DNA of 36,653 nt from an uncultured Nitrospirales bacterium (GTDB taxonomy: Bacteria; Nitrospirota; Nitrospiria; Nitrospirales; NS-4), in contig CAZMPH010000005.1 of assembly GCA_964568195.1 (NCBI GenBank), positions 1-36,653 of the forward strand, given 5' to 3'. Of this stretch, positions 1 to 16,773 are shown piece after piece. The notes below the pieces were generated by a model. The model was not told the origin of the DNA, did not search any database, and saw nothing but the letters and a program-made list of their open reading frames with translations. The translations under genes were made by a program, and so were the position numbers. Within the stretch, counting starts at the first letter, position 1; each line of letters opens with the position of its first letter.

Positions 1-878
1 CGCAGCACCGGTTCCAACTCGCCGTACCCTCGCAGGTACAGCTCGGCCGATTCGTACCACGCGGCGCTCAGAATCAATTGCTCCAGCCCACGGTCCCGCA
101 CGTAAACCCCCTGATAGATGACGCGCCGCACTCGCCCGCCGGAATCCCCGACGCCGTCGGAGCCGGCCGAGCCGCGCACCACCGCGAAAGGGCAATTTAT
201 CACCACGGTCGGCAAGGGCACTCCATGCCAGGTCGCCAACGTCTCGGCAATGGACTGATTCACCGTCACCACCCGGTGCGCGTAGCGGATGAGCCAATGC
301 TCGATGCCGAAGAGGATCGTGCGGAACTGCCGGGACGCCCCGGAGAACTGGCAGGAAAACAGTTCGTGTGCGTCGTAGAGCAACGGGGCTCCATGCAGAC
401 GCGAGAGAATGACGGCGGCCGGCAACGTATCGAGATCGTTCGCGTGGATCAGGCCGGCGGGATTGCGACGGGCCAACGCCACGGCCCGCCAGGTAAACCA
501 GATGATGCCGCCCAAGATCCACAATTCCCACGGCCTGATCCAGAAGGGCCGGCTCGCGGGATCGCCGGCATCGCCGGTTCTCCCGAACATCGATTTGAAG
601 AGACGCAGGCCCGGCGGACGCGGCACCCGATGGACCTCGAGGCCCTCGGGGGGACCCTGCGCGGTCGCCTCGTTCGGCGCCCGACAGATGAGCCTGACGC
701 TGAGCCCCGCGCGGCCAGCCGCCTTGATGGACCGTTTCACTCTCGGATCGTTCAGTCCCTCATTCGTGACCAGCATGAGGACGGTCCGGCCTGAAGGGTC
801 GCGCTCCGCGGATGCGCGTACCCGTTCCGCTTCGCCGCCGACGCGACAGACCGACTGCGCACAGATGGGAGCGCTCAT
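1..878 (-). CDS. Glycosyltransferase family 4 (GT-B), N-terminal part only; the gene runs off the left edge of the window
   Basis: Absent from the ORF track because no stop codon lies in the window. My translation of the minus strand from ATG 878..876 reads MSAPICAQSV...GRTVLMLVTNEGLNDPRVKRSIKAAGRAGLSVRLICRAP...GLIHANDLDTLPAAVILSRLHGAPLLYDAHELF...HRVVTVNQSIAETLATWHGVPLPTVVINCP and stays open to position 1. It has the same motif order as the GT4 at 5077..6573 (VMNDLLNDPRVQREA, GNDLPTL, LYDSHEFW, VVTVNDLIADEL, TVVMNCP). The start overlaps the upstream stop as ATGA (875..878). Confidence 0.75.
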   Translation of the reverse strand, partial: MSAPICAQSVCRVGGEAERVRASAERDPSGRTVLMLVTNEGLNDPRVKRSIKAAGRAGLSVRLICRAPNEATAQGPPEGLEVHRVPRPPGLRLFKSMFGRTGDAGDPASRPFWIRPWELWILGGIIWFTWRAVALARRNPAGLIHANDLDTLPAAVILSRLHGAPLLYDAHELFSCQFSGASRQFRTILFGIEHWLIRYAHRVVTVNQSIAETLATWHGVPLPTVVINCPFAVVRGSAGSDGVGDSGGRVRRVIYQGVYVRDRGLEQLILSAAWYESAELYLRGYGELEPVL

Positions 879-3064
879 CGGCCTCCTCCGGAAAAAGCCT
901 CCAGGCGATCCATCATCGCACCCCAGGCGGCCTCGGCTTCGCTGTAGGTCGCCCACCCACCATGGCCATCGCCGATTTCGAACACGGCATAGAACCGGAC
1001 AGGGCCGGTGCCCTGGAACGCGACATGCAGCACCGGCGCCGGCACCTTGATCCCGTAGTCCTCCGCGTACCATCCGTCGATCGGATCCGTGGCCCCCACC
1101 GCCACATGGCCGGCGACCGGAACGGCACGCCCGGTCTCCGCCTCGGCGCAAAGGAACCTGGCCCTCGCACGGACCCAACGCCCCTGGATGTCCCAGACCT
1201 GCGGATGATCGGTCGGCCGAAAGACGACGGCCGGCATCCCGTGAAAGAGCGCCTCGAACGTGTGCAGCCCCGTCCCCTCCAGATCGTCCCGGATGATCAG
1301 CCGCCGTTCGTGTCGAAGGAGCAGAAGGCTTCTCCGGTGAAGCACAGGATTGGGCAGGCGGCGGTAGCCGTCATGCGCCCCCGTGACGAAGTCCGCGGCT
1401 TCCGAAAACCGCCACCGGACGTCTCTGGGACGGGCCCGCTGGCGAAGGGCCCAGGAGGTCGTCAGGACGCTCTGATCCTGGCCGTCTATCAGGATGACGT
1501 TGTGCCCGCGGGCGCTCCGGAAGTAATCGTGCCAGGGCTTCGAGCCGGTGTAGGTATAGGAGCCTATGTCCGTCAAAAGCGTCTCGCCGCCCGCGGCGAG
1601 ACCGACCGTCAACAGATCGCTGTGGCCGTGGGTGCCGACCGACACCTCGTCAGGCCAATCGCCCATCCCGACATGTCCGCAATCGAAGAAGGCCCACAGC
1701 GCGTCGGGCCGCCACGCCTCGCGCAGGACGAAGTACCCGCCCTGAGGAAACGCAACCGACCGGGCCGGCTCGCCGGCGGGCAACTCCTTCCAGCGTTCAT
1801 ATCCTGCCGGCCCCAACCACCAGAGCGCGTCTTCGCTGTTCCCGTCCATGCCGAACTTGAGGGTCCCGTCACCGAACAGCGCCGAGCCGAGATTCAGGAG
1901 GCCGCGATGATCGTTGATCGAACGATGGGCGAACTGCCACACCCGCGCCCCGTCAGCGTCGCTGATCGGCTGGACGCGCCCGTTGGGCTGGGTCATGTGC
2001 AGGAGAAACGTCAGCATGCGCCGCAGCGTCCCACGGGTTGAGGCGCCGTAGGGAGATTCCTGCGCGCCGGCAAGGAGCCACGGCAGGAGACAGAACTCGA
2101 CGACGTAGCGGTGGTAGTTGATGGACTGCTCGTACTGGACCCCGTCCGGATAGACCTGTTTCGCCAGCTCGCCTTCGATGATCTGGATCGCCTGCGCCCG
2201 CCACGCCGCCGCCTCGCGGAACTCCGGAAACGCCAGCGCCAGGGCCGCCAGCCCCGCCGCATTGCCAAAGAGGTGATTCGATGCGCGTTCCGCAAACTCG
2301 AAGTGGATCGGGATGTACCGTGCATGCTGGTAGACCGACCGGAGAATTTTCAGCAGGCGGGCCGGCGTGAGCGCGGGACTCTCCCGTACGGCTTGCAGAG
2401 CCAACGCCCACGCAATGGCGCGCTGGGCCACGATGAGGTTCTGCGTCCAGGCCAGGCCCCAGAGGAACGGGTTCCGATCGATCCAATCCTCCATCTGTGC
2501 GAGCAACGCCTCGGCGTAGCGTTCCTCGCCGGTGAGCCAGTAGGCCTTGGCCAGATCCACGAAGTGCGCGTGCTTGTTCAGCTCCCAGGGAAGTTTGACA
2601 TCACCGATATACAGGTCGTTCTCAAAGTCGTTCGCGTAGAGCCTCGCATTGAGGTCCTGGTAGTCTCCGCCGACCCATGTGCCGCCTTGGAAGTCCGACC
2701 ACCAGTTGATCGGATCGCCGAGGAAGCGCTCGCCGCTGCCGAGCACCTCCACTACGCCCCGGCAGGCCAGGTCGGCCCGGCGCAAGGTCTCCTTGTAGGA
2801 CTCGGGGAAGCGCTCGGCGACCAGCCGCGCCAGTTCCTTGCGGTCGGCCGGCCGGAAAAGGTGCGCCGGCAGGGCGCGGGACCGGAAATGGCTCAGCAGT
2901 GCGGCCGCGTCCCGCCCGGTGGCACCCGCATCCAGCAGGGCCAGCACGTCCGTATCAGCCATCGCCGTGAGCGAACGGAGTTTTTCGCGGGTTCTCTCCT
3001 GGACGCGCACCGACGGCCCCCACCGAACCATGAGCGCACGCTTCATGCGGGTCAGCAAACGCAT
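875..3064 (-). CDS. Heparinase II/III-like family protein (polysaccharide lyase / epimerase-like fold), 729 aa
   Basis: ORF-track protein. The N-terminal alpha/alpha-toroid-type region reads WELNKHAHFVDLAKAYWLTGEERYAEALLAQMEDWIDRNPFLWGLAWTQNLIVAQRAIAWALALQAV, and the C-terminal half reads GHSDLLTVGLAAGGETLLTDIGSYTYTG...ARGHNVILIDGQDQ, which is typical of Hepar_II_III domains. The ATG at 3064 lies 1 nt after the upstream stop. Confidence 0.8.
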   Translation of the reverse strand: MRLLTRMKRALMVRWGPSVRVQERTREKLRSLTAMADTDVLALLDAGATGRDAAALLSHFRSRALPAHLFRPADRKELARLVAERFPESYKETLRRADLACRGVVEVLGSGERFLGDPINWWSDFQGGTWVGGDYQDLNARLYANDFENDLYIGDVKLPWELNKHAHFVDLAKAYWLTGEERYAEALLAQMEDWIDRNPFLWGLAWTQNLIVAQRAIAWALALQAVRESPALTPARLLKILRSVYQHARYIPIHFEFAERASNHLFGNAAGLAALALAFPEFREAAAWRAQAIQIIEGELAKQVYPDGVQYEQSINYHRYVVEFCLLPWLLAGAQESPYGASTRGTLRRMLTFLLHMTQPNGRVQPISDADGARVWQFAHRSINDHRGLLNLGSALFGDGTLKFGMDGNSEDALWWLGPAGYERWKELPAGEPARSVAFPQGGYFVLREAWRPDALWAFFDCGHVGMGDWPDEVSVGTHGHSDLLTVGLAAGGETLLTDIGSYTYTGSKPWHDYFRSARGHNVILIDGQDQSVLTTSWALRQRARPRDVRWRFSEAADFVTGAHDGYRRLPNPVLHRRSLLLLRHERRLIIRDDLEGTGLHTFEALFHGMPAVVFRPTDHPQVWDIQGRWVRARARFLCAEAETGRAVPVAGHVAVGATDPIDGWYAEDYGIKVPAPVLHVAFQGTGPVRFYAVFEIGDGHGGWATYSEAEAAWGAMMDRLEAFSGGGR

Positions 3065-3065
3065 G

Positions 3066-4211
3066 TCACAGGATTCCGCAGCAGCGGGAGCAGGCCGGAT
3101 ACGTCCCGTGGGTGATGAGATTCTTGCGGAACTCCTGGTAGCTCGGACCGTTCCAGATGTCCTTGAAGCTCTGCTGGTTGATGTTGCCGAAGCTGGTATG
3201 GAAACAGCGCGTCATCACCACGCAGTCCCCGTTGGCGATGATCTCCGCCGCTCGCCAGGGCACGTAGCAGCGGTCTCCATGGACGAAGACTTCCGGATGG
3301 AAGTAGAAGTCTTCCAATCCCTTCCGGTCGAGGTCCGGACCGAACATGGCGCGCCCGGAATAGCGCGTCTTCACGCGATTGATCTGGTCCCAGAACACGT
3401 TCACGTCCACCTTCGTCGGGTCCGCGTTTGAAACGCTGCTCACCGTCGTGGGATAGAGGTGGCCGAAGCGGGCGTTGTGGACTTCCGCCATCCCTGCCGT
3501 CACGTAGTTCATGTGGGAAAAGGTGATCTGGTCGACCGGCAACGCGTGCACGGCGTCCATGAAGCGCTCCAGGCAATGGAAGTTATAGTTGGAGAACGCG
3601 TAATTGATGCCCATCTTGGGAAACTCGCGCCCGAGCCGGCGCTTCCACTCGTCCACGGCAAGAATGCCGGCGACGGACTTCTGGAAGGAGTCCTTGACCC
3701 CGCGGATGTCGTTGTGGATCTCCGGCGGGCCGTCGATCGAGACCCAGAGATGCTGGACTCCGACCCGCACGAGACTCTCCGCATGCTTCTCCAGCTGAAG
3801 CCCCGCCGTCGTCACCAGCATGGGCAGCCCGTTGCTGACAACGTAGTCGCACAAGGAAATGATGTCCTTGTAGAGCAACGGCTCGGTGGAGGTTGCCGCG
3901 ATCATCGGCTTGAAGTCCTTGACTTCATCCACCAGCGCTTTCAACCGCTCCAGCGAGAGCCGGTCGCGCGGCTGCTCCTTCGACAGGCTCATGATCTTGT
4001 AGAACTGGGTGTCGTACTGTTCCATGCCCACATCGCACATCTTGCAGGCGAACCCGCAGCGCGTGTTCACGGCCAGATAAATCGTGGCCGGAAAGGGCGC
4101 AACGGTCCGCCGGAAGACTTGGGTCTCCTTGTACCGCTGGACCGCCCCGCTCAATTTTTGCTGAACGCGCCCCGTCAGCCCCCGCATCTTCCTTGTCAGC
4201 AATGCCATCAT
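3066..4211 (-). CDS. Radical SAM enzyme with a C-terminal SPASM/twitch-like cysteine cluster, 381 aa
   Basis: CX3CX2C motif in AVNTRCGFACKMCDVG. C-terminal cysteines in GDRCYVPW...NGDCVVMTRCFHTSFGNI...YPACSRCCGIL. A purine-rich SD (GGAAGGAAAGAG) lies just upstream of the ATG pair at 4211/4208. Confidence 0.8.
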   Translation of the reverse strand: MMALLTRKMRGLTGRVQQKLSGAVQRYKETQVFRRTVAPFPATIYLAVNTRCGFACKMCDVGMEQYDTQFYKIMSLSKEQPRDRLSLERLKALVDEVKDFKPMIAATSTEPLLYKDIISLCDYVVSNGLPMLVTTAGLQLEKHAESLVRVGVQHLWVSIDGPPEIHNDIRGVKDSFQKSVAGILAVDEWKRRLGREFPKMGINYAFSNYNFHCLERFMDAVHALPVDQITFSHMNYVTAGMAEVHNARFGHLYPTTVSSVSNADPTKVDVNVFWDQINRVKTRYSGRAMFGPDLDRKGLEDFYFHPEVFVHGDRCYVPWRAAEIIANGDCVVMTRCFHTSFGNINQQSFKDIWNGPSYQEFRKNLITHGTYPACSRCCGIL

Positions 4212-4235
4212 GGCTCTTTCCTTCCAGTCATCCCG

Positions 4236-5072
4236 CTACTTGGTTGCGGTAATGTACAGATCCACGCCCGCGACCCGCGCGAGATTATTGAGGAGTTTCT
4301 CCCGCGGCACCACCACCCGGCCTCCGGGCAGCACCAGCGGATCGCAGTTCTGGCTTTCGATGCGGACCGCCCGGAAGTCCCGGAACAGCCGGCGCACCTG
4401 GGCTCGCGAGACGTAATCCGTGTGCGGCGCCGCGTCGCCTTTCGCGTTCTTGTCGTAAAAGGCCCGCACCCACCGCGAACGGTCCGACGCGCCATCGTGT
4501 GACCGGAAGCGCTCCCGGATCAGGTTGCGCAGGCGCAGCAGCGGCAAGTGCACCAGCCGGCGGAAGGAATGGTGATGGTACAGCATGATGATGGCCTTCC
4601 CGCCTTCCTTGAGGACCCGGTGGACTTCCGTGATCCCACGCCCGAGGTCGCCGGTGTGATGGAGGCACCCGATCGAATACACGAAATCAAAGGAACGGTC
4701 CTTGTACGGGATCTCCAAAGCCGACCCGACCTGAACCCGGTCGCCGCCCTCCAGCCCCAGAAGCGACAAGCGAAAGCGCATCATAGCGACGGGATTCACG
4801 GCGATGTCCAGCCCGTGGTAGCAACACCCTTGCAACGCGAGCACCTGACCGAGCGTACCGTAGCCCAAGCCGATCTCCAGTGCCCGTTTGCCTTGCAAGT
4901 CTTGGGCGAAGACGTATTTCCCGAGATAGGGATAGAAGCGCAGGTACGCCTCGTCGAAGCGGCGCAGATTCTCCGGCGACGGCTCCGTGATGCCGAGCGA
5001 GCGGGCCAACCCCGTGCCGCACAATTCATTCCAGAACGCGGCGTTCTTTCTGTTCAGGGTGACGGTCGGCAT
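4236..5072 (-). CDS. Class I SAM-dependent methyltransferase (Methyltransf_11-like)
   Basis: Motif I in ALEIGLGYGTLGQVLALQG, then LDIAVNP, SFDFVYSIGCLHHTGD and LKEGGKAIIMLY. The ORF track starts at 5129. I use the internal ATG at 5072 (MPTVTLNRKNAAFWNELCG) because it lies 4 nt after the upstream GT4 stop (5077), whereas the longer form would overlap that gene by 53 nt. Confidence 0.8.
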   Translation of the reverse strand: MPTVTLNRKNAAFWNELCGTGLARSLGITEPSPENLRRFDEAYLRFYPYLGKYVFAQDLQGKRALEIGLGYGTLGQVLALQGCCYHGLDIAVNPVAMMRFRLSLLGLEGGDRVQVGSALEIPYKDRSFDFVYSIGCLHHTGDLGRGITEVHRVLKEGGKAIIMLYHHHSFRRLVHLPLLRLRNLIRERFRSHDGASDRSRWVRAFYDKNAKGDAAPHTDYVSRAQVRRLFRDFRAVRIESQNCDPLVLPGGRVVVPREKLLNNLARVAGVDLYITATK

Positions 5073-5076
5073 GGGG

Positions 5077-6573
5077 TTACCCGCTCCCGCGGCTGGTGTT
5101 CGCCGCCGCCAAGGTCTTGTAGAGCTCAATCAGCTTGCCCCCTTCATGGTCCCAGTGGTACCGCTCGCGTCCCGCGCGGGTCGCACTCGCGCGGCAGGCA
5201 CGGAGCCGATCCGGGTTGCCGACCAGCGCGTTCAATTGCTCAGCGATCTGTCTGGGATCGGAGGGATCGAAGACGACCCCCAAGTCGTGATCCCGCACTA
5301 GCTTCTCCAAAAACGGCAGGTTGCTCACGGCGATCGCCAGGCCGGCGAGTATGTATTCGAACAACTTGTTGGGAGAGGCGTAGTAATAGCCGGGAGAATA
5401 GGCCGTGTAGGGCACGACTCCCACGTCCGCCTCCGAGGCAGCGCTCACGAGGTCGGCCATCGGAACCGGTCCCACCATGAACACGCGCCCCGGCACCCCG
5501 AGGCCGGCCACGCGGTCGCGCAGGTCGTTCTCGTTGGACCCGTACCCACGCAGGACGATGACACCCCGCGAGAGATACCGGCCGCTCTCGATCAATTCCT
5601 CCAGTCCCCGGCCCGGCTCGTAGCGTCCTTGATACAGGATGATCGGCGTCTCCGGGGACAGGCCCAGTGTGGCGCGGATCGAATGGGCCGGGTCCACCGG
5701 CCGCGGCACGACCGGTTCCGGGCAGTTCATCACCACCGTCGGTTGGGGAACCTGATAGTGCCGGCGCAACTCGTCTGCAATGAGATCGTTGACCGTCACG
5801 ACGGCGTCCATGCGGCGGATGTAGCGGGCCTCCACCCAGCGCGACACGCCGTCGAAAAACGCCGTGTTTTCGGGATTCATGCCGACCCAGAACTCGTGCG
5901 AATCGTAGAGCGCCTTCCCGCCGTGGAGGCGCGCCGCCCAGGTCGTCAAGGGGAGTGTGGGGAGGTCGTTCCCGTGAAACACCGCGGCCCGCTCGGACCG
6001 CGACGCCCACAGCATGGCCACCGTGATCCAGAACGTGTCGCGGATGAACCCGACCTCGCCGATATAGCGGCGCAGCCGCGCCCAACGGTCTGCACCATCT
6101 GTGGACCCTTCCGGCGAAGCGCCGGCCTGCGGCGCGCTCGCACACCGACTCAGGACGGGTCGCAACACCCGGAGCGGCAGGAGCAGGACCCCCACCCCTC
6201 GCATGAGCGCCCACTTGATCCGGCGGAAGATGCTCGGCTTCGTGGGATCCTGGCCCGGCGCTTTCGGCCCGGGGGGAAAGCCCACGGCCAGCTTGAACCC
6301 CTCCGTCAGCACCAGTGCCGCCAGCGATCCGAGCCACAGCAGCCTGAGCACCAGAAACCGGAGGATGGACCGGTGATACCGGACCCGCACGACCTCATAG
6401 CCGTCCACCGCCTCCCGCTTGATCCGACACCGGTCGCTCTGCATGGCGACCACCGTCACCCGAAGCCCTGCCTTCACCGCCAGCCGGGCCTCCCGCTGGA
6501 CACGCGGATCGTTGAGAAGGTCGTTCATCACGAACATCACGACGCGCGTGGGACAGCTACCGGCTTGCGTCAT
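5077..6573 (-). CDS. Glycosyltransferase family 4 with a hydrophobic insertion in the N-terminal Rossmann domain
   Basis: The C-terminal half has GT4 hallmarks: ILYQGRYEPGRGLEELIES, VGPVPMADL, VGVVPY and SPNKLFEYILAGLAIAVSNL (E-x7-E region). The track ORF starts at 6888. The internal ATG at 6573 (MTQAGSCPTRVVMFVMNDLLNDPRVQ) forms an ATGA overlap with the Wzt stop (6570..6573), and the 5' extension would lie entirely inside the Wzt coding region. Confidence 0.8.
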   Translation of the reverse strand: MTQAGSCPTRVVMFVMNDLLNDPRVQREARLAVKAGLRVTVVAMQSDRCRIKREAVDGYEVVRVRYHRSILRFLVLRLLWLGSLAALVLTEGFKLAVGFPPGPKAPGQDPTKPSIFRRIKWALMRGVGVLLLPLRVLRPVLSRCASAPQAGASPEGSTDGADRWARLRRYIGEVGFIRDTFWITVAMLWASRSERAAVFHGNDLPTLPLTTWAARLHGGKALYDSHEFWVGMNPENTAFFDGVSRWVEARYIRRMDAVVTVNDLIADELRRHYQVPQPTVVMNCPEPVVPRPVDPAHSIRATLGLSPETPIILYQGRYEPGRGLEELIESGRYLSRGVIVLRGYGSNENDLRDRVAGLGVPGRVFMVGPVPMADLVSAASEADVGVVPYTAYSPGYYYASPNKLFEYILAGLAIAVSNLPFLEKLVRDHDLGVVFDPSDPRQIAEQLNALVGNPDRLRACRASATRAGRERYHWDHEGGKLIELYKTLAAANTSRGSG

Positions 6574-7874
6574 CGCTTCTGCTCCGCAGCGGCCCCGGGC
6601 GTCTTTTCCTCTAAACCAGCGAAGGCCCGCCAGCGCACAGGATGCCGGATGACTCCCAACTCCAGCGCCACGCCGGCCAGTCTGCGGACCAGGAAGGTCT
6701 GCGGCTTGTGCCAGATCGCCGCGTGCTGGACGCTGTGGGTGTCGGCTAAGTCCAGCAAGGGATAAACCCCCACCGACACCGTATACTCCCCGGGACCGAA
6801 CATCAGCTGGTCGAACGCGACTTCGATGGTCCCCTGGCCTTCGGCCAGCTCCAGGCGCGCCCCGTCCATGGATGAAATCGCATTGCACACCGCCACGCCA
6901 TCGGTCCGGTACACCGTCACCGAGACGACGGCCTGCGGCAACGCCACCCGCGAGTGATAGCGGACGCGAACGATCATGAGCTCGCCGACCGAAAATACGC
7001 GGGAGAGTTCGCCCGTCGCCTTCACAAACTCGACGCCGTCCACGCCAACGGCCTCGCTTCGCCTGAGCGCTCGGGCCGGCGCCAAGTCCGCTCCCGACAC
7101 CGACACGCCGACCTCGGCAGCCCGATCCCGCTCTTCATAGATTGACTGGTTATACACCGTGATCACTTCCAGTGGCGACCCATCCGCAACAATGACTCCC
7201 TGGTCGATCCACAAACAGCGTGAGCAGAGCCTCAGGACCGTGGCATGGTCATGCGAGACCAGCACGGTGGTCCGTCCTTCCTCCTGAAACCGGCGAAAAC
7301 GCTGGAGGCACTTGCCGAAGAAATAGGCGTCGCCCACACCCAGTACCTCGTCGATCACTTGGATGTCGGCCGGCACGCTGGTGGCCACGGAGAACGCCAG
7401 ACGCATGTGCATCCCGACCGAGTAGGTCCGGACCGGCTGGTGCAGGAACGATCCCAGTTCCGCGAAGTCCACAATCTGGTCGTACAGCGCCTCGACCGCC
7501 GTGCGATCGAGTCCCAGGTACAGCCCGCTGGCGTAGATGTTCTCGTGCCCCGTCAGATCCGGATGGAATCCCGTGCCCAGTTCCAGCAGCGCAGAAGTCC
7601 GGCCGTTCAACGTCACCTCGCCGCGTGTAGGCGCGCTGACCCCCGAGAGCACTTTGAGCAGCGTGCTCTTCCCCGCGCCATTGCGGCCAATGATGCCCAC
7701 GGTGCTCCCTCGGGCGATGTCGAATGACACATCCTGCAGCGCCCAAAACTCTTCGAAGTACCGATCGGCCTTGCCGAGCCGAAGCCCTAGAAAGTCCAGC
7801 AGCCGGAAGGGTCGACTCCGGTACAGCTTGTACATCTTGGAGATGTCCCGGACTGAAATCGCCGTATTACCCAT
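6570..7874 (-). CDS. wzt: Polysaccharide/O-antigen ABC exporter ATP-binding protein (Wzt/TagH-like) with a C-terminal extension of about 170 aa
   Basis: Walker A in GRNGAGKSTLLKVLSG, signature in YSVGMHMRLAFS, Walker B in IQVIDEVLGVGD, and H-loop in VLVSHD. The NBD is followed by a beta-rich tail (GVEFVKATGE...MIVRVRYHS...VSVTVYRTDGVAVCN...EYTVSVGVYP) that resembles the Wzt C-terminal glycan-binding domain. The track start at 7886 is a GTG (GTGA overlap with wzm). I prefer ATG 7874, which is preceded by AAGGA at a 5-nt spacing; the start is uncertain by 12 nt. Confidence 0.85.
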   Translation of the reverse strand: MGNTAISVRDISKMYKLYRSRPFRLLDFLGLRLGKADRYFEEFWALQDVSFDIARGSTVGIIGRNGAGKSTLLKVLSGVSAPTRGEVTLNGRTSALLELGTGFHPDLTGHENIYASGLYLGLDRTAVEALYDQIVDFAELGSFLHQPVRTYSVGMHMRLAFSVATSVPADIQVIDEVLGVGDAYFFGKCLQRFRRFQEEGRTTVLVSHDHATVLRLCSRCLWIDQGVIVADGSPLEVITVYNQSIYEERDRAAEVGVSVSGADLAPARALRRSEAVGVDGVEFVKATGELSRVFSVGELMIVRVRYHSRVALPQAVVSVTVYRTDGVAVCNAISSMDGARLELAEGQGTIEVAFDQLMFGPGEYTVSVGVYPLLDLADTHSVQHAAIWHKPQTFLVRRLAGVALELGVIRHPVRWRAFAGLEEKTPGAAAEQKR

Positions 7875-7882
7875 GCTGTCCT

Positions 7883-8671
7883 TCACACAAAATCCGGCAG
7901 CTCGCGACGGAGGCGCATGAAGTGCCGGTAACCGGTCAACAACGTCACGAATGCCAGCCCGGCAAACGTGACCAGTCCCGCAACACTCGGCAACCGGTTG
8001 AACATCAACGCTCCGCGATACCCTTCAATCAGATAGGACAGGGGATTCAGCTTGACCACCAGCTCAAGCCCCCCAGGAACCATCTCCTGCGTGTACGCGA
8101 TGGGGGAGAGAAACATCAGCAGGACGATCAGAAGCCCGATCACCTGGGAGGTATCGCGGTAGACGATATTGACGCACGACAGGAACCAGACGACCCCGAT
8201 CGTGAAGAGCGCTTGGAGAATCACGAGCAACGGAAGGAGTAACAGAGTGAGGCCCAAGGCTCCTCGGAAACCGAGCACGAGCAGCAACACCACGATCCCG
8301 CACACTTGTACCAACAGCCCCGCACAGACTGCCGTGACCGGGATCAGCTCCATCGGGAATACCGTGCTCTTCATGAGATTGCGCTGAGCAAGCACCGATC
8401 CGGTGCCTCGCATCACGCCTTCTGAGAATCCAAGCCACGGCAGGAGACCGCAGGCCATCAGCAGGGCGTAGTCCAAGCTCGACAGGGCGAGGTCCGGTCG
8501 CACGCCCAGAATCTTCCCGAATAAAAGCAAATACGCGCCCAGGACCAACAGCGGCGACAACAGCGTCCACAGTAAACCGAGCCGCGAGCCCGCGTATCGG
8601 ACCTGGAAATCCAGCACTGTGAGTCTCCAGACCAAGTGCCGGTGCCGGAAGAGCATGCGCAAGCAGTTCAT
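7883..8671 (-). CDS. wzm: ABC-2 type polysaccharide exporter permease (Wzm/TagG-like)
   Basis: Six predicted hydrophobic spans and a typical N-terminus (LFRHRHLVWRLTVLDFQVRYAGSRLGLLWTLLSPLL). It lies immediately upstream of the ATPase. The track start at 8689 is a TTG. ATG 8671 (MNCLRMLF) forms an ATGA overlap with the wecB stop (8668..8671). Confidence 0.8.
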   Translation of the reverse strand: MNCLRMLFRHRHLVWRLTVLDFQVRYAGSRLGLLWTLLSPLLVLGAYLLLFGKILGVRPDLALSSLDYALLMACGLLPWLGFSEGVMRGTGSVLAQRNLMKSTVFPMELIPVTAVCAGLLVQVCGIVVLLLVLGFRGALGLTLLLLPLLVILQALFTIGVVWFLSCVNIVYRDTSQVIGLLIVLLMFLSPIAYTQEMVPGGLELVVKLNPLSYLIEGYRGALMFNRLPSVAGLVTFAGLAFVTLLTGYRHFMRLRRELPDFV

Positions 8672-9777
8672 GACCGCTTCTCCCGGCAATAGTCGGCGAC
8701 GATTCCGAGGATCGCTTCCGCGGCATGGCCGTCGCCGTAAGGCTGTCCCCGTTCGTGGGGAACCTCTTCGAGCGCCAAGCGAGCCGCCGCCTCAACGGCG
8801 TCGTGGGCCGTCCCGGCCACTCGGTTCCACCCCGCCTCCACCGTTTCCACCCACTCGGTCTCGTTCCGCAGGGTGACGCAGGGAACCCCCAGCAGGAACG
8901 CTTCCTTCTGGACTCCTCCAGAGTCGGTCAAGATCAGCCGGGCGTGCCGCTCGAGCATCAGCATCTCATGGTAGGAGACAGGCGCAATCAGGCGGACCGG
9001 CCCGGAGACGTGACCAGCCCCTGTCGCGTCCAGCACCGCCCGCGTGCGCGGATGCAGCGGCACCACGATGGGCAGGCCGAGTCGCCCGAGGGCCGACAGG
9101 ATGCCCGTGACGGTCTCGGGGCGATCGGTCGACTCGGCGCGATGAATCGTGGCCAAGGCATACTCGCCTGATTGCAGCCCCAACTTGGCCAGGATGCCGG
9201 TCCTCTCCTCGGCCTTACGGAGATTGAACACCAGCGAGTCATACATGACATCGCCGACGAGATGGACCCCGGCAGTAATCCCTTCGCAACTCAGGTTCTT
9301 CACAGCGCGCGTGGTCGGACACAGCAACAGCATCGAGAGATGATCGGCGACCACGCGGTTGATCTCTTCAGGCATGGCCCGGTTGAAGCTCCGGAGCCCG
9401 GCTTCGACATGCGCGACCGGCAAACCGAGCTTGCTCGCCGCCAACGCCCCCGCCAGCGTCGAGTTCGTGTCGCCGTACACCATCACAAGGGCCGGCCGCT
9501 CGTCCTGCATCACACGTTCCAGTCCCTCCAGCATCCGACCGGTCTGCTGCCCGTGCAGACCGGACCCGACGCCCAGATGATGTGACGGCTCCGGAATAGC
9601 CAATTCCCGGAAAAAGACGGCGGACATGTTGTCGTCATAATGCTGGCCCGTGTGAACCAGGACGTCTTCGATCCGACGGCCACCGGAGACCCGTTCATTG
9701 TACGCCGCGATCGCGCGCGAGACGACGGCGGCCTTGATGAACTGCGGGCGAGCGCCCACGACCGTGAGGAGCTTCAT
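8668..9777 (-). CDS. wecB: UDP-N-acetylglucosamine 2-epimerase, non-hydrolysing (WecB/WbpI family)
   Basis: MKLLTVVGARPQFIKAAVV, HTGQHYD, VYGDTNSTLAGALAA, HVEAGLRSFNRAMPEEINR and LTDSGGVQKEA. The internal ATG at 9777 forms an ATGA overlap with the upstream stop. The track's 42-aa 5' extension overlaps the acetyltransferase gene. Confidence 0.9.
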   Translation of the reverse strand: MKLLTVVGARPQFIKAAVVSRAIAAYNERVSGGRRIEDVLVHTGQHYDDNMSAVFFRELAIPEPSHHLGVGSGLHGQQTGRMLEGLERVMQDERPALVMVYGDTNSTLAGALAASKLGLPVAHVEAGLRSFNRAMPEEINRVVADHLSMLLLCPTTRAVKNLSCEGITAGVHLVGDVMYDSLVFNLRKAEERTGILAKLGLQSGEYALATIHRAESTDRPETVTGILSALGRLGLPIVVPLHPRTRAVLDATGAGHVSGPVRLIAPVSYHEMLMLERHARLILTDSGGVQKEAFLLGVPCVTLRNETEWVETVEAGWNRVAGTAHDAVEAAARLALEEVPHERGQPYGDGHAAEAILGIVADYCREKRS

Positions 9778-10373
9778 GCGCGTTCCTCCTCGACCAGCCC
9801 GGCGCGAGAGCGCCGGTATCCGGCCCCACAGACCTGGCAGGACACGCGCGTTCGCCCGCTCTTGACCGGGAGTTTCAATTTGATGCCGCACCGGCACATC
9901 CACCCCTGCTGCCGGCCGGGGTTACCGGTGACCAGCGCAAAATCCGGAACATCCCGGGTCACGACGGCGCCCGCCCCGACAAAAGCGAAGCGCCCGATGG
10001 TGAGCCCGCAGAGAATCGTGGCGTTGGCTCCAAGGGTGGCACCCTGCCGGACCAGCGTCGGACGATATTCGTGCTTGCGCGAGATGCGGCTGCGGGGATT
10101 GATCACATTCGTGAAGACGACCGACGGCCCGCAAAACACGGAGTCCTCCAGCGTCACGCCGTCGTACACCGAGACGTTGTTCTGGATCTTGACGCCGGCG
10201 CCCACCACGGCGCCAGGAGCGATATAGACGTTCTGGCCGATGGAGCAGCGCGGCCCCACCGTCGCGCCCTTCGCAATATGCGAGAAATGCCAGAGCTTCG
10301 TCCCCTCACCGATCGCGCCGGGGTCATCAACACAGACCGTCTCGTGCGCCCAAAAGCCTCGGTCGCCGTCCAT
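9774..10373 (-). CDS. Left-handed beta-helix (hexapeptide repeat) sugar N-acetyltransferase, WbpD/WlbB-like, with a C-terminal CxC...CxxC tail
   Basis: Hexapeptide repeats in IGEGTKLWHFSHIAKGATVGPRCSIGQNVYIAPGAVVGAGVKIQNNVSVYDGVTLEDSVFCGPSVVFTNV and ATLGANATILCGLTIGRFAFVGAGAVVTRDVP. Tail reads GWMCRCGIKLKLPVKSGRTRVSCQVCGAGY. The internal ATG at 10373 (MDGDRGFWAHETV) lies 2 nt after the upstream stop at 10376. Confidence 0.8.
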   Translation of the reverse strand: MDGDRGFWAHETVCVDDPGAIGEGTKLWHFSHIAKGATVGPRCSIGQNVYIAPGAVVGAGVKIQNNVSVYDGVTLEDSVFCGPSVVFTNVINPRSRISRKHEYRPTLVRQGATLGANATILCGLTIGRFAFVGAGAVVTRDVPDFALVTGNPGRQQGWMCRCGIKLKLPVKSGRTRVSCQVCGAGYRRSRAGLVEEERA

Positions 10374-10375
10374 GG

Positions 10376-11407
10376 TCAGCCTTTCACCGTCACCGGCACG
10401 CCGTCCAAGTCCAACGACTGCTGGGCGGCCGTCAGGACCCGGATCACCTGGAGGCCGTGGGCTCCGTCGCTGAGCGGGACGGACTTCCCGCGGATGCAGT
10501 CCAGAAAATGCCGGCACTCAGCCCGGAGCGGCTCGCCCGTGCCGGTGTGCGGGATCAGGATATCCCCGAATCGCACGCGCAGGTAGTCGTCGGAGGAGAC
10601 GGCCTCCGGACGGACGTCCACGCCCTTGTCGTAAATTCTGATCTTGTCCGTTGGTTCCATGTCGTCGAACACAACCATCTTCCGGCTCCCCACCACGGTC
10701 GTCCGCCGGACCTTATGGGGATCGAGCCAACTCAAGTGGATGTGGGCCATTTTCTTTCCCGGAAAATGGAGGGTCACGAAAACCACGTCCACGACACCCT
10801 TCTGAAGATACGCCGCGCCCTTGGCCGTGACCACCGCCGGCTCCGCGGCGAACAGATGGATCGCCACGGCGACGTCGTGCGGCCCGAAGCTCCACAAGGC
10901 ATTCTCGTCCTTGCGAACGCGCCCGAGATTCAGCCGCTGGCTATAGAGGTAGAAGAGCTCGCCGATGTCCCCCGACGAGATCAAGTGCTTCATCTTGATG
11001 ACCGCCGGGTGGTACAGCAGCAGGTGACCCACCATGAGGCGTCGCCCGGTCCGCTGCGCCACTCGGACCAACTCCTCGGACTCGGCCGCCCGCAGCGTCA
11101 TGGGCTTCTCCACCAGCACGTGCTTGCCCGCTTCCAGCGCCTGACGCGCCTGCTCGAAACGTTCCGACGCGAACGACGCGATGGACACGGCCTCCACGGA
11201 GGCGTCCCTCAGGATTTCCTCATAGCGCGTCGTCGTCGTCACGCCAGGGTATTGTGCCCGGACGGCCTCCAACCGCGCGTCATCGAGATCGCAGACCGCA
11301 ACCAGCCGCGCGCCCTTCATCTGGGCGAAGGTCCGCACGTGGTTCCTGCCCCATTCCCCCGCGCCCACCACCGCCACCCGGACGGCTTCCGGTTCTTGCG
11401 TCGTCAT
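10376..11407 (-). CDS. Gfo/Idh/MocA family NAD(P)-dependent sugar oxidoreductase (WbpB-like)
   Basis: N-terminal Rossmann motif VAVVGAGEWGRNHVRTFAQMKGARLVAVCD, then HVLVEKPM and a C-terminal alpha/beta dimerisation domain. Its position directly upstream of the acetyltransferase and epimerase fits a nucleotide-sugar modification set. Confidence 0.8.
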   Translation of the reverse strand: MTTQEPEAVRVAVVGAGEWGRNHVRTFAQMKGARLVAVCDLDDARLEAVRAQYPGVTTTTRYEEILRDASVEAVSIASFASERFEQARQALEAGKHVLVEKPMTLRAAESEELVRVAQRTGRRLMVGHLLLYHPAVIKMKHLISSGDIGELFYLYSQRLNLGRVRKDENALWSFGPHDVAVAIHLFAAEPAVVTAKGAAYLQKGVVDVVFVTLHFPGKKMAHIHLSWLDPHKVRRTTVVGSRKMVVFDDMEPTDKIRIYDKGVDVRPEAVSSDDYLRVRFGDILIPHTGTGEPLRAECRHFLDCIRGKSVPLSDGAHGLQVIRVLTAAQQSLDLDGVPVTVKG

Positions 11408-11417: not shown

Positions 11418-12185
11418 TCATTTGAAGTCCCGTCGTTGGAAGATCACGCAGGCCAGGGTCAGAATCACCGCGCTATAGGTTACTCCATAGGCCACCGCGG
11501 ACACGAGATACAGGGGTTCGATCGGCAGCCCATACACCGCCGGGCCCTTGACGTTGAAAAACTCGAGGTTGGGCAACGTATAGTAAAGCCCGTCCAGGAG
11601 GAGCTTGATCAACTCGCTCTGCAACTTGGCGGCCAGCACGTGAAGGTCATCGGCCAGATGTCCGATGGCGTAGATCGCCAACGTGAACGTCGCGCTCAAG
11701 GTCGGCGTGGTGAACGTGGAAAACATCACCGCCACGGCGGTGATCACCAGGAGTTCCACGAAGATCAGACCGATGGCCTTCAGCAAGGCCGGTTCCAGCC
11801 CTACCTGGCCGATGAACAGCGTGAGGAAGAATCCCGCCACCATGATGGAGACGTTCACGAGAAGGGTCAGCGTGAGGCCGGCGTACTTGCCCAGAAGAAA
11901 TTGGTAGCGGGGAATCGGCTTCGCGATGATCGAATAGATGGTGCGTTTTTCGATTTCCTTGCTGACCAGGCCGATCCCGACAAAAATCGCAATGAGGACG
12001 CCGAACAAATTGATGCTCGCCAGGCCGAGGTCCTGAATGATCTTGGCCCGTTCGCCCATGGTGAGCGTGCCCAGCAAAATCGAACTCACGATCAAGAGCA
12101 GTCCGAAGAACACCAGGTTGTAGAGAATCTTGTCCCTCAACGTTTCGCGGAACGTGTTCAGCGCGATCACGCCGATCCGGTTCAT
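11418..12185 (-). CDS. ABC-2 family transporter permease (NosY/COG1277-like), substrate unknown
   Basis: Six hydrophobic spans, with TFRETLRDKILYNLVFFGLLLI and KEIEKRTIYSIIAKPIPRYQFLLGKY motifs. ATGA overlap with the ATPase stop (12182..12185). Confidence 0.75.
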   Translation of the reverse strand: MNRIGVIALNTFRETLRDKILYNLVFFGLLLIVSSILLGTLTMGERAKIIQDLGLASINLFGVLIAIFVGIGLVSKEIEKRTIYSIIAKPIPRYQFLLGKYAGLTLTLLVNVSIMVAGFFLTLFIGQVGLEPALLKAIGLIFVELLVITAVAVMFSTFTTPTLSATFTLAIYAIGHLADDLHVLAAKLQSELIKLLLDGLYYTLPNLEFFNVKGPAVYGLPIEPLYLVSAVAYGVTYSAVILTLACVIFQRRDFK

Positions 12186-13114
12186 GCCCGTCCGCCCCCG
12201 ACTTCTTTCAGGAAGAGATCTTCCAGGGAACGCTTGTGCGGGACGAGCGAGACCAGCCGCCCCCCGTGCCGGCGGACCACCTCCAGGAGAGAATTCACTT
12301 TGGCCTCGCCGTCCAGCTTGATCAGCACCTGCGCGCCCCGTCTCACCACCGCTCCGCCCAGTCGCTCCGCCTCCTGGACGCCGGCCTCCGCAAGTCCCTC
12401 CGCGATGACCTCGACCGACGTCACGGCGGACGCGTCCACCAACTCCTGGACTTTCCCCACGGCCTGGAGACGCCCTTTGACCAGAATACCCACGCGATCG
12501 CAGATCATCTCCACGTCGGGCAGGATGTGCGTGCTGAAGAAAATCGTTTTCCCTGTGTCTCGGAGATGAAGAATGATGTCCCGAACATCGCGTCGCCCGA
12601 TGGGGTCCAGTCCCGACATCGGCTCGTCCAGGATGACCAGTTGCGGATCGTTGATCAGGGCCTGGGCCAGGCCGATCCGCTGCAGCATCCCCTTGGAGTA
12701 TTTCCGCAAAGGCAGGCCGCGGGCTTCGGTAAGCTTGACCATCTCCAGCATCTGTGCGATTTTCTCAGCCAGTTGGCGTCCCCCAAGGCCGAAGAGCTGG
12801 CCGTAGAACCGGAGAAACTCCTCGCCGGTCAGGTACTCGTAGAAGTACGGCGCCTCGGGAAGAAAACCGATCCGGTTTTTGACCTCCACATCGCCGATCT
12901 CCCGGTCCAGCAGCCACGCTGTGCCGCTCGTCGGATAAATCAGCCCCAGCAGGATCTTGATGGTCGTCGTCTTACCCGCCCCGTTCGGACCGAGAAACCC
13001 GAAGATCTCGCCTTGCTCCACATCCAGGTCCAGCCCATCCACGGCCTTGCTGCGCTGCCGCCGGAGTCCCAGACGAAATTCCTTGGTGAGCCCGCTGATC
13101 CGAATGGGCGTCAT
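12182..13114 (-). CDS. ABC transporter ATP-binding protein (COG1131-like)
   Basis: Walker A in GFLGPNGAGKTTTIKILLGL, signature in YSKGMLQRIGLAQAL, Walker B in LVILDEPMSGLD, and H-loop in IFFSTHIL. ATGA overlap at 13111..13114. Confidence 0.9.
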   Translation of the reverse strand: MTPIRISGLTKEFRLGLRRQRSKAVDGLDLDVEQGEIFGFLGPNGAGKTTTIKILLGLIYPTSGTAWLLDREIGDVEVKNRIGFLPEAPYFYEYLTGEEFLRFYGQLFGLGGRQLAEKIAQMLEMVKLTEARGLPLRKYSKGMLQRIGLAQALINDPQLVILDEPMSGLDPIGRRDVRDIILHLRDTGKTIFFSTHILPDVEMICDRVGILVKGRLQAVGKVQELVDASAVTSVEVIAEGLAEAGVQEAERLGGAVVRRGAQVLIKLDGEAKVNSLLEVVRRHGGRLVSLVPHKRSLEDLFLKEVGGGRA

Positions 13115-13989
13115 TGCGGCCTCCGCTTGCCGTACACTTTCAAACGATCCTTCATCTCGCTACTCCGCACGGACTGGGTCTGCGGATCATACAGGTACTG
13201 CCCACCGAACGGCTCGCGTGGCAATTCCCGCAGGAGACCGGCCTCCATCAGATCCTCCAACCGATCGGGCGCTCGCTTGTAACGCTCTCGGTACCGGCTG
13301 ACGGCCTCCTCGAGCAACTGGAGATCCCGTTCGACCACCACTTCCTTCAGACGCTGCTCCAAGACGCGTTTCACGTTCTCATCCGCGGTCTGGGCATACA
13401 TCTGGGCGAGAAAATCTATGGCGACTTGCGGTTCTCTGGCCGAGACATAGAGCCTGGTGGCAAATGGCGCGAGGTACTGGGGCGCCCCCGGAAGGCGGGA
13501 TGCCCTGGCGATATAGTCAGCCGCCTTGGCGTCATCGCGCAACTCGAAGTAGTAGTTGAACCCCAGCAAGAAGGGAAGCGCCCAGTAGTCGGGATTGTGC
13601 TGGATCCCTTTCTCCAATACCCGGTTGCTCTCCTCAACCAGAACCACCAGTGTCACCAGGGCAACGCCTCCGACCTCATAGACGCGCGTAAACTTGGGAT
13701 CCAATGTAGTGATGACATCCAACGCTCGGTAGATCCACTGACCGGCCTCTTCCATCACCTTGCGCTCGCCCATCGCCTGGATGGCCTGGATCCACAGGAA
13801 GTCCGCCACGACCTGCTCGTACCCCAACACCGCCACCCGGAGGTACTCGCCTTGCGGTAGGTACATGAACCGCTGCAGCTTGGGCGTGGCGGCCCGCTGC
13901 TGATCAAGCCGGGTCTGAATGAAGTACAGTCCCAGGATGAGGACCAACCCGGTCATCACCAGGACCTTCAGCCGCGCGGTCTCGCTCAT
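13111..13989 (-). CDS. Membrane-anchored helical (TPR-like) protein of unknown function
   Basis: A single N-terminal hydrophobic span (LKVLVMTGLVLILGLYFI) is followed by an alpha-helical repeat-like body. The internal ATG at 13989 (MSETARLKV) forms an ATGA overlap with the stop of the upstream Wzy_C-TPR gene. The C-terminal segment RAPDRLEDLMEAGLLRELPREPFGGQYLYDPQT resembles the YP..L..L...P.DPWG..Y.Y motif of T2SS major pseudopilins by eye only. Confidence 0.6.
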   Translation of the reverse strand: MSETARLKVLVMTGLVLILGLYFIQTRLDQQRAATPKLQRFMYLPQGEYLRVAVLGYEQVVADFLWIQAIQAMGERKVMEEAGQWIYRALDVITTLDPKFTRVYEVGGVALVTLVVLVEESNRVLEKGIQHNPDYWALPFLLGFNYYFELRDDAKAADYIARASRLPGAPQYLAPFATRLYVSAREPQVAIDFLAQMYAQTADENVKRVLEQRLKEVVVERDLQLLEEAVSRYRERYKRAPDRLEDLMEAGLLRELPREPFGGQYLYDPQTQSVRSSEMKDRLKVYGKRRPQ

Positions 13990-15953: not shown

Positions 15954-16002
15954 GGGGGCACGTCACGACTGCCATCAGCCCCTTGTGGTTTGCACAAAGC
16001 AG

Positions 16003-16031
16003 GGGCGAGGGGTCGTCACGACCCCTCGCCC
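16003..16031 (-). terminator. GC-rich hairpin, probable intrinsic terminator of pilin gene 1
   Basis: A perfect 13-bp inverted repeat, GGGCGAGGGGTCG-tca-CGACCCCTCGCCC, lies 22 nt downstream of the pilin stop (16054). On the minus strand it is followed by CTGCTTTGTGC, which is only a short U-run. Confidence 0.6.
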
Positions 16032-16053
16032 GCCCTGACCCAACCAGCTAGGA

Positions 16054-16551
16054 TTATTTTGCGACGTCGTTATTGGTGTTGGTCAGGTTTCTGACATCGT
16101 TGATGACAAACTCATCGCACGTGGCATCGCCGTCAATATTCGCCTGCGCGCCGGCCGTAAATCCGACTCCATTCGCCACGGAACCAGCCGGTACAACCCC
16201 GCCTGCAAAGGTGCCTCTATTAGTGAGGCATGCGCTTCCACCGGCGGACGGGGTAATCAAGAAACCCACGGCGTTCTGTCCGCCGTAGTAGAGGTCATAC
16301 CTGGAAGTTCCGGCGGGCTTGTAGCCGAGCGTGTCGGCGGTCGGCACGCTGAAGGTGTTGTTCTCGGCAAAATACGAGGTGGCGGTCGTGAAGATACCGC
16401 CGAGGTTCACCTTGGCTTCCGATTGCCGCGCTTTTGCTTGATAGGTTAGAAAGTTCGGGATGGCGATGGCCGCCAGAATCCCGATGATCGCCACCACGAT
16501 CATCAACTCGATCAAGGTGAAGCCCTGATCCCCTTTCATCCGTTTAAACAT
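16054..16551 (-). CDS. pilA: Type IV pilin (prepilin with an N-terminal cleavage/methylation motif), 165 aa
   Basis: MFKRMKGDQG|FTLIELMIVVAIIGILAAIAIPNF is a canonical class III signal (G-F, Glu+5). There are two Cys residues near the C-terminus (SACL...ATCDEF). A strong SD (AAGGAGG) lies 8 nt upstream of ATG 16551; the track start at 16554 is a GTG one codon upstream. Confidence 0.9.
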   Translation of the reverse strand: MFKRMKGDQGFTLIELMIVVAIIGILAAIAIPNFLTYQAKARQSEAKVNLGGIFTTATSYFAENNTFSVPTADTLGYKPAGTSRYDLYYGGQNAVGFLITPSAGGSACLTNRGTFAGGVVPAGSVANGVGFTAGAQANIDGDATCDEFVINDVRNLTNTNNDVAK

Positions 16552-16693: not shown

Positions 16694-16773
16694 TCCCCAT
16701 TCGCCTCGAACAGGCATAAATCAAAGCAGTTAGCACAACCTTTCAACCTACAACCGGATCTCCCGGTCAATTT

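Follow-up and report, generated by a model that had tools for sequence, protein, structure and literature searches.

Many bacterial O-antigens, capsules and biofilm polymers contain L-configured aminohexuronic acids, among them L-GalNAcA and L-GulNAcA (PMC11200240, PMC3901696), and in the literature that we found the C5 inversion that would produce them is only postulated, with no gene assigned to it. In Vibrio VPS, for example, L-GulNAcA was proposed to arise from D-ManNAcA via C5 inversion, by an enzyme that was not assigned (PMC3901696). A biosynthetic enzyme that acts at C5 of hexuronic acids is human dermatan sulfate epimerase 1 (DS-epi1; PDB 6HZN), an epimerase that shares its fold with lyases. 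Here, we describe a gene cassette that might contribute such a step to bacterial surface polysaccharides. It was encountered on a 36,653-nucleotide (nt) stretch of DNA from an uncultured Nitrospirales bacterium (GenBank assembly GCA_964568195.1, contig CAZMPH010000005.1, positions 1 to 36,653; hereafter the window), where genes for a heparinase II/III-like protein and a radical S-adenosylmethionine (SAM) enzyme adjoin each other. The conserved cassette consists of these two genes together with those encoding a family 4 glycosyltransferase (GT4) and an AsnB-like amidotransferase, and is found in Nitrospirota, Planctomycetota and Omnitrophota. From comparative genomics and predicted structure, we put at roughly one half the probability that this cassette tailors a glycan in the cytoplasm during polysaccharide assembly, its four members acting on one hexuronic acid residue.

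The genes in question are on the minus strand of the window, where they are transcribed in the order GT4b, methyltransferase, radical SAM, heparinase II/III-like and GT4a. They are listed below with their domain matches and, where complete, their length in amino acids (aa).

1..878, minus strand: GT4a glycosyltransferase, N-terminal 292 codons inside the window (Glyco_trans_4_4 9.7e-15)
875..3064, minus strand: heparinase II/III-like protein with the fold of polysaccharide lyase family 12 (PL12), 729 aa (Hepar_II_III_N 4.5e-39, Hepar_II_III_C 4.4e-39)
3066..4211, minus strand: twitch-type radical SAM enzyme, 381 aa (Radical_SAM 1.2e-12, SPASM 2.2e-12)
4236..5072, minus strand: class I SAM-dependent methyltransferase, 278 aa (Methyltransf_11 6.8e-17)
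5077..6570, minus strand: GT4b glycosyltransferase, true start at or below 6570 (Glycos_transf_1 8.8e-15)

The tight packing of these genes, from which an original prediction made on this DNA had started, is exact in every detail when re-read from the sequence. A gap of 4 nt (5073-5076) separates the GT4b stop at 5077 from the methyltransferase gene, 24 nt lie between the methyltransferase and radical SAM genes, a single nucleotide between the radical SAM and heparinase-like genes ('ctgTGAcATG'), and the heparinase-like stop overlaps the GT4a start in an ATGA at 875-878 ('cgATGAgc'). The methyltransferase of 278 aa starts at the ATG at 5072, the mechanical open reading frame (ORF) extending to a TTG at 5129. 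The two flanking GT4 are paralogues, as had been proposed (36% identity over 176 aa, E 7e-25).

What lies beyond the left edge of the window could be read on a public contig (L095) that is 100% identical to window 1-400 and extends past it. On this contig (L095 3724-6775), GT4a is a complete protein of 449 aa and is followed, with a 26-nt overlap, by a gene for an AsnB-like glutamine amidotransferase (GATase_7 2.8e-51, Asn_synthase 1e-64), the gene that accompanies the heparinase-like gene most consistently when loci are compared. The same gene order as in the window and its extension is seen in L001 (21 kb), the closest full-length relative, in which genes for a further GT4, a DUF218 protein and a WecA-type PF00953 transferase come next. 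The closest public loci are from Nitrospirales metagenome-assembled genomes and encode radical SAM proteins that are 83-87% identical. The methyltransferase, radical SAM and heparinase-like genes, which the original prediction had grouped into one tight tailoring module, must be regrouped, the true partners being the downstream GT4 and the AsnB-like amidotransferase that lies outside the window.

A search of a species-representative genome collection with the radical SAM protein gave 406 sites with a relative, and 80 of these loci were fetched and compared. Heparinase-like and radical SAM genes are adjacent in nine of the 80 (in Nitrospirales, Omnitrophota, Planctomycetia and one unclassified bacterium) and in three further metagenome contigs, while homologues of both are encoded on one 44-kb Patescibacteria contig, so that the pair does recur outside this genome, in several phyla. 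A GT4 and an AsnB-like gene follow this pair in L001, L081-L084, L094 and the window extension L095. A search from the heparinase side agrees with this. In L083, L084 and L094, the order is a heparinase-like::GT4 fusion, radical SAM and AsnB; in L081 and L082, the heparinase-like, radical SAM, GT4 and AsnB genes adjoin Wzx or Wzy genes, and the cassette is therefore not tied to ATP-binding cassette (ABC) export. The link with GT4 goes further than adjacency. In L001, L045 and several metagenome proteins, the heparinase-like ORF is fused into GT4 to give products of 1072-1168 aa, and a profile search of 1.84 billion cluster representatives returned 11,891 heparinase-like relatives at E <= 1e-30, a count that takes in classical lyases and is an upper bound for the biosynthetic type. 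Among the best 150 of the 11,891, fusions exist in both orders (GT4::heparinase-like and heparinase-like::GT4) and in independent lineages, which argues that the two activities concern the same substrate.

The most telling comparison comes from the partners of the radical SAM gene. A neighbour-joining tree of the radical SAM loci separates clade I, with 38 loci at >=35% identity to the window protein (all but two >=36%) and the window protein itself, from clade II, with 42 loci at 32-38% identity that are mostly from Bacteroidota and Ignavibacteria. In clade I, 30 of the 38 loci have exactly one of three mutually exclusive partners no further than ~5.5 kb from the radical SAM gene, and for 25 of these 30 the distance is at most ~350 bp. 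The partner is heparinase-like in nine loci, of C5-epimerase type in seven and a family that we named unk559 in 14. Six of the seven C5-epimerase-type proteins match PF06662 (D-glucuronyl C5-epimerase) at 1e-29 to 5e-34, and the seventh, from Methanoregula, is a GH88/C5-epimerase-like (alpha/alpha)6 protein with a weaker match. None of the 42 clade II loci has any of the three partners (Fisher p = 5.5e-15, uncorrected for phylogeny, a value that overstates the evidence because the 80 loci are not phylogenetically independent). The type of partner tracks the radical SAM tree, and most clade I loci have an AsnB-like gene no more than 8 kb away. Judged by gene context, the heparinase-like protein is interchangeable with a known C5-epimerase family, in a biosynthetic setting.

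The third partner, unk559, is a family of ~550 aa found beside the radical SAM gene in 14 loci (within L016-L036, e.g. L020 8196-9875), with no Pfam match and no match in the PDB by profile search. When it was compared with the heparinase-like family, of which it might be a divergent branch, hhalign gave a probability of only 21%, although its invariant N-H and Y align with the catalytic Asn-His and Tyr. Loci with unk559 usually also carry a FemAB-like acyltransferase, a DegT-like gene, DUF7033 and AsnB. As for clade II (L038-L080, e.g. L065, L070 and L073), its loci often contain arrays of separate B12-binding radical SAM and MTS-type methyltransferase genes, with GT2/GT4, a setting unlike that of clade I and likewise uncharacterised.

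The heparinase-like protein has the architecture of PL12 heparinase III and, by Pfam and predicted structure, its (alpha/alpha) toroid/beta-sandwich fold. It matches the heparinase III structure 4mmh by profile (4.3e-24), and Foldseek searches with an AlphaFold (AF2) model (predicted local distance difference test, pLDDT, 90) returned heparinase III for all top five matches (best 4fnv, template modelling (TM) scores 0.67/0.73), with human DS-epi1 at rank 15 (E 1.5e-17). Scores against the NCBIfam HepC models are 114.9 bits (cut-off 700) and 77.3 (cut-off 600). N263, Y317 and H479 align with Asn240, Tyr294 and His424 of heparinase III, the first of which is the neutraliser and the other two the base/acid (PMC12088678). 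Among 27 homologues, with identities down to 25%, Y317 and H479 never vary and N263 is >=90% conserved, so the catalytic Tyr/His pair singled out by the original prediction is conserved, and its suggestion that the protein could epimerise or eliminate on a uronic acid is reasonable. Neither a signal peptide nor a transmembrane segment was detected in this protein, which has a basic N-terminus and a maximum Kyte-Doolittle value (19-residue) of 1.15, and it should therefore act in the cytoplasm, which is where ABC-dependent glycans are assembled. Its gene sits in a biosynthetic operon and not, as with heparinase III, in a catabolic locus for secreted or periplasmic enzymes. The best reading is that of a putative biosynthetic hexuronate C5-epimerase working like DS-epi1, rather than a degradative lyase, because the protein occupies the same genomic niche as glucuronyl C5-epimerases, keeps the proton-abstraction machinery, is predicted to be cytoplasmic and has repeatedly been fused to GT4.

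In the radical SAM protein, the CX3CX2C motif (C52/C56/C59) is invariant. In its C-terminal iron-sulfur domain, only C315, C336, C374 and C377 are invariant among 35 homologues (C330 and C378 vary); these four align with cysteines of the BtrN twitch domain and are presumably the four ligands of an auxiliary cluster. A full SPASM domain has seven cysteines for two auxiliary [4Fe-4S] clusters. With only four invariant C-terminal cysteines, the protein is, on its predicted ligands, a BtrN/BlsE-like twitch (half-SPASM) enzyme with one auxiliary [4Fe-4S] cluster, and not of the SPASM type to which it had been assigned. In line with this, BlsE (4.9e-19) and BtrN (1.7e-13) rank first when the family profile is compared with the PDB, and Foldseek matches of the AlphaFold (AF2) model (pLDDT 91.9) include SkfB, BlsE (TM 0.64/0.73), SuiB, DesII, MoaA and BtrN. 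No NCBIfam model reaches its cut-off on this protein and its nearest solved relatives by profile, BlsE and BtrN, act on carbohydrates, which places it outside the characterised non-glycan subfamilies, as the glycan role first envisaged demands. A role as maturase of ribosomally synthesised and post-translationally modified peptides or of cofactors was considered on account of weak TIGR04317 and NirJ matches and rejected: all scores are far below cut-off, and 80/80 loci have glycan-type or other biosynthetic-enzyme neighbours, not cofactor operons. The C-methylation that had also been suggested is unlikely, since a Pfam scan found no B12-binding domain (PF02310) in the protein. Epimerisation, oxidation (as by BtrN) and decarboxylation (as by BlsE) are each possible. 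A similar basic helix begins both this protein (MMALLTRKMRGL, window 4176-4211) and the heparinase-like protein (MRLLTRMKRAL, window 3034-3064) and is conserved in their Nitrospirales orthologues; it could be a docking or membrane-association motif.

The methyltransferase behaves differently. L002 and L003 do not have it, a GT4 gene coming immediately before the radical SAM gene there, and it is thus missing in loci with an 83% identical radical SAM protein. L001 has two methyltransferase genes, an orthologue of that in the window and an unrelated second (L001 6797-7666) that is inserted between Wzt and GT4b and has no counterpart in the window. Such gain and loss among close Nitrospirales relatives looks like variation in a serotype-like decoration. 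The methyltransferase family is also much larger (2769 matches), and orthologues with 62-67% identity are found in an Anaerolineales genome and on a metagenome contig of unclassified origin, within Wzm/Wzt_C clusters that have WecB, GFO, hexapeptide or AsnB genes and lack heparinase-like and radical SAM genes; the proteins without Pfam match encoded beside these orthologues were tried as relatives of the heparinase-like protein or of unk559 and proved unrelated. Two other candidates were rejected as orthologues of the window methyltransferase. One is encoded directly upstream of the heparinase-like gene in L081 (Planctomycetia) and has 27% identity over the SAM-binding core only. The other is the class I methyltransferase domain of a 911-aa protein that also contains an AsnB-like amidotransferase (L092 2415-5150); here, only the generic SAM-binding core aligns (33% over 116 aa). 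The window protein, with its 278 aa and single Methyltransf_11 domain, is not joined to a coiled-coil ruler as WbdD-type methyltransferases are. On this distribution, the methyltransferase is an independent accessory enzyme of predicted decoration function and not a member of the cassette, and the single module of three genes in the original prediction comes apart, as close relatives lack this gene and its orthologues are encountered where the other two are not.

The cassette is embedded in a larger gene cluster on the minus strand, the full order being GFO-family dehydrogenase, hexapeptide acetyltransferase, WecB-type epimerase, Wzm, Wzt, GT4b, methyltransferase, radical SAM, heparinase-like and GT4a. 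The genes upstream of GT4b are the following.

6570..7886, minus strand: Wzt ABC-transporter ATPase with a C-terminal Wzt_C carbohydrate-binding domain (ABC_tran 1.7e-19, Wzt_C 8.9e-13)
7883..8689, minus strand: Wzm ABC-2 permease (ABC2_membrane 4.6e-16)
8668..9903, minus strand: WecB/WbpI-type UDP-N-acetylhexosamine 2-epimerase (Epimerase_2 7.3e-104; TIGR00236 305 bits, cut-off 210)
9774..10517, minus strand: hexapeptide-repeat N-acetyltransferase, WbpD-like (Hexapep 6.4e-22; NeuD/PglB/VioB family 1.2e-24, below cut-off)
10376..11407, minus strand: GFO/IDH/MocA oxidoreductase, a WbpB-like sugar 3-dehydrogenase (GFO_IDH_MocA 4.8e-29)

Wzm and a Wzt with Wzt_C beside glycosyltransferases are what an ABC-transporter-dependent O-polysaccharide cluster contains, and these domain calls, with those of the GT4, bear out the surface-glycan operon with ABC export that had been predicted for this DNA. 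The GFO/IDH/MocA oxidoreductase scores 3.5e-51 against a model of archaeal UDP-GlcNAc 3-dehydrogenase, which is below the cut-off of that model. By analogy with the Wbp pathway of P. aeruginosa, the product expected from WbpB/WbpD/WecB-like genes is a 2,3-diacetamido sugar.

Further upstream, the window contains a second ABC-2 permease/ATPase pair (11418-13114), an ORF of 320 aa without Pfam match (13111-14073) and a gene for an O-antigen ligase-like Wzy_C protein of 655 aa that ends in TPR repeats (13986-15953). The next stretch, 15954-19525, has a G+C content of ~0.56 (~0.63 elsewhere), with no long ORF at 15.9-17.5 kb; after this comes an ORF of 662 aa that has no Pfam match and lies where AT skew is strong (0.36). 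At 29048-34605, a methyltransferase gene precedes two tandem genes for YfhO-like membrane proteins, possible transferases of glycans or lipid-linked sugars; the ORF called mechanically at 31450-34605 overlaps the first YfhO gene, and its true start is probably internal. No tRNA genes were found in the window.

How might the members of the cassette work together? The target residue is probably a sugar of the 2,3-diacetamido-mannuronic type made by the adjacent WbpB/WbpD/WecB-like enzymes. The heparinase-like protein would remove and return its C5 proton with Asn, Tyr and His, as a non-lytic C5-epimerase that converts the D to the L series, and it would do so on the lipid-linked glycan, physically partnered with GT4a. 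The radical SAM enzyme would abstract a hydrogen atom from the same residue and bring about a change out of reach of acid/base or NAD chemistry, for example a second epimerisation or an oxidation. By reasoning alone, a 4-linked 2,3-diacetamido residue has no free hydroxyl, which would be a chemical reason to recruit a radical enzyme. The AsnB-like partner implies a carboxylate, which this enzyme would turn into an amide. The methyltransferase would add a separate, serotype-like decoration and travel with Wzm/Wzt exporters that have a carbohydrate-binding domain. In known systems such as E. coli O9a (Wzt/WbdD), Wzt_C reads a terminal modification, and the methyltransferase may make the methyl mark that Wzt recognises. 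A bolder scenario, which we regard as rather unlikely as it stands, is that the PL12-fold enzyme inverts C5 of a lipid-linked diacetamido-uronic acid through a carbanion, after which the twitch radical SAM enzyme inverts or oxidises a neighbouring carbon that lacks a free hydroxyl and is thereby closed to NAD chemistry, leading to L-configured aminohexuronic acids or their amides.

Several points weigh against the reading that we favour. Domain scans found neither a UDP-sugar 6-dehydrogenase nor a DegT-type/WbpE-type aminotransferase encoded in the window, and the 21 kb of L001 do not encode a UDP-sugar 6-dehydrogenase or WbpE-type aminotransferase either, which is why we infer the uronic acid, solely from the AsnB-like gene and from related loci that carry UDPG_MGDP_dh. 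The pairing of heparinase-like and radical SAM genes is not obligatory, because two more distant loci (L085 and L092) have heparinase-like and AsnB genes without a radical SAM gene, and the shared ancestry of the 80 loci tempers the statistics given above. NeoN and HygY are radical SAM sugar epimerases that depend on a cysteine, and no spare invariant cysteine that could serve as hydrogen donor is seen in our radical SAM family, which weakens the idea of a second epimerisation and makes a NeoN-like epimerase with a cysteine donor somewhat less likely. In this fold, lyases and epimerases use the same residues, and the two outcomes are indistinguishable from sequence. Lastly, a 2026 preprint describes the related gene of the Ralstonia EPS-I cluster (see below) only as a 'heparinase-family protein', with mild fitness effects.

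The residues shared by lyases and epimerases leave room for a different role, in which the heparinase-like protein is a cytoplasmic beta-eliminating lyase that sets the length of the lipid-linked chain by cutting it, so that the non-reducing end carries a 4,5-unsaturated uronic acid. Such an end would be non-extendable, perhaps methylated, and could be the cap read by the carbohydrate-binding domain of Wzt. The full lyase catalytic set and the heparinase III fold are there, Wzt carries Wzt_C and a methyltransferase gene is adjacent in the window, but we hold this role to be improbable, since terminal capping plays no part in the Wzx/Wzy-type clusters that also carry the cassette, close relatives do without the methyltransferase, and the place of the heparinase-like protein beside the radical SAM enzyme is taken in other lineages by homologues of D-glucuronyl C5-epimerase, none of them lyases. 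A chain-cutter fused to a chain-building GT4 would, moreover, be wasteful. The GT4 fusions could equally be a means to channel a donor sugar, if the heparinase-like and radical SAM enzymes acted on a nucleotide sugar such as UDP-ManNAc3NAcA and epimerised, oxidised or decarboxylated it into a rare donor for the fused or adjacent GT4. BlsE, BtrN and DesII all act on small-molecule sugars, not polymers, and the DegT-like aminotransferase and acyltransferase beside the radical SAM gene in unk559-type loci recall oxidation by BtrN followed by transamination. We nevertheless find this doubtful, because a fold like that predicted here, of heparinase III type, belongs to lyases that cleave polymers, because all characterised epimerases on lyase-type folds (DS-epi1, Glce, AlgG) act, to our knowledge, at the polymer level, and because epimerisations of nucleotide sugars are normally performed by short-chain dehydrogenase/reductase or cupin enzymes and would not need a radical SAM enzyme.

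The least probable proposal, and in our view a very unlikely one, is that with which the study of this DNA began, namely that a single three-gene module trims a sugar with the heparinase-like protein and methylates (including C-methylates) it with the radical SAM enzyme and the methyltransferase. It has in its favour the spacing of only 1 and 24 nt between these genes in the window and the methyltransferase gene that, in L081 from Planctomycetia, likewise comes immediately before the heparinase-like gene. The latter is, however, no orthologue, and the proposal has to contend with a radical SAM enzyme devoid of a B12-binding domain and with a methyltransferase that comes and goes independently of the other two genes. 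Cytoplasmic tailoring of one hexuronic acid residue by the four-member cassette, with the heparinase-like protein as putative C5-epimerase, is thus the reading that we retain.

The cassette of heparinase-like (or C5-epimerase) protein, twitch radical SAM enzyme, GT4 and AsnB-like amidotransferase is widespread and without earlier characterisation. Literature searches combining heparinase with radical SAM, with asparagine synthase, or with O-antigen and epimerase found nothing, and one paper (PMC8698959) mentions heparinase only as a glycoprotein. What makes the cassette attractive is that heparinase-like genes of biosynthetic operons swap with glucuronyl C5-epimerases beside one radical SAM clade, which offers a testable candidate for the C5-inversion step. 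If the radical SAM enzyme acts on the glycan, radical chemistry that is mainly known from antibiotic sugar pathways would enter surface-polysaccharide assembly. Should the two enzymes prove to act in succession on the lipid-linked residue, no radical SAM enzyme would have been shown earlier to work on a nascent bacterial surface polysaccharide, and a role would be assigned to thousands of 'heparinase-like' genes in biosynthetic loci.

How does the cassette compare with what has been described? Heparinase III (PL12), represented by Pedobacter heparinus HepC (4MMH) and Bacteroides BT4657 (4FNV/5JMD), resembles the window protein in two-domain architecture, predicted fold and Asn/Tyr/His residues. 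However, the window protein is only ~20% identical to it and has no signal peptide, and genes of its type overlap with, or are fused to, a glycosyltransferase gene in a biosynthetic operon instead of lying in a catabolic locus. DS-epi1 acts at C5 during biosynthesis, as we propose for the window protein, but it is a eukaryotic Golgi enzyme, whereas the window protein is bacterial and predicted to be cytoplasmic; at 15% identity, and with a rank below heparinase III, the likeness is a lead and not membership. In six loci, next to members of radical SAM clade I, Glce-like PF06662 proteins stand where other loci have the heparinase-like protein, the two being mutually exclusive. They are not homologous by sequence (hhalign 2.8%), and replacement of one by the other is read from gene context.

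A precedent with a known polymer is the EPS-I operon of Ralstonia solanacearum, whose heparinase-family gene (RS_RS21995 / HI793_23130) was found by a tblastn search of plasmids; no Shigella was among the matches listed (30 matches, ten genera), the S. sonnei O-antigen plasmid having been sought. The operon comprises wecB, wecC, GT4, acyltransferase and Zn-dehydrogenase genes, then the heparinase-family gene and, with a 4-nt overlap, another GT4 gene, and the heparinase-family protein is 27% identical to that of the window over 451 aa, with NH/YH/H motifs kept. Unlike the cassette, EPS-I has neither a radical SAM nor an AsnB gene, the neighbouring gene being that for a Zn-dehydrogenase, and the pathway is of Wzx/Wzy type. 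The EPS-I polymer contains alpha-L-GalNAcA (PMC11200240, citing Orgambide 1991).

The comparison with known enzymes is equally instructive for the other genes. WbdD-type terminators (E. coli O9a) co-occur with Wzm and a Wzt_C-bearing Wzt, as does the window methyltransferase family, but the window protein is single-domain, with no kinase or coiled-coil. BlsE (cytosylglucuronate decarboxylase), which acts on a glucuronic acid nucleoside, and BtrN (2-deoxy-scyllo-inosamine dehydrogenase) are carbohydrate-acting twitch enzymes like the window radical SAM protein, which is nonetheless only ~15% identical to them and reaches 29.7 bits against the curated BlsE model (cut-off 400); both belong to antibiotic pathways and act on small molecules. 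The known kinds to which the cassette relates are, in sum, glycan-modifying epimerases and sugar-acting radical SAM enzymes.

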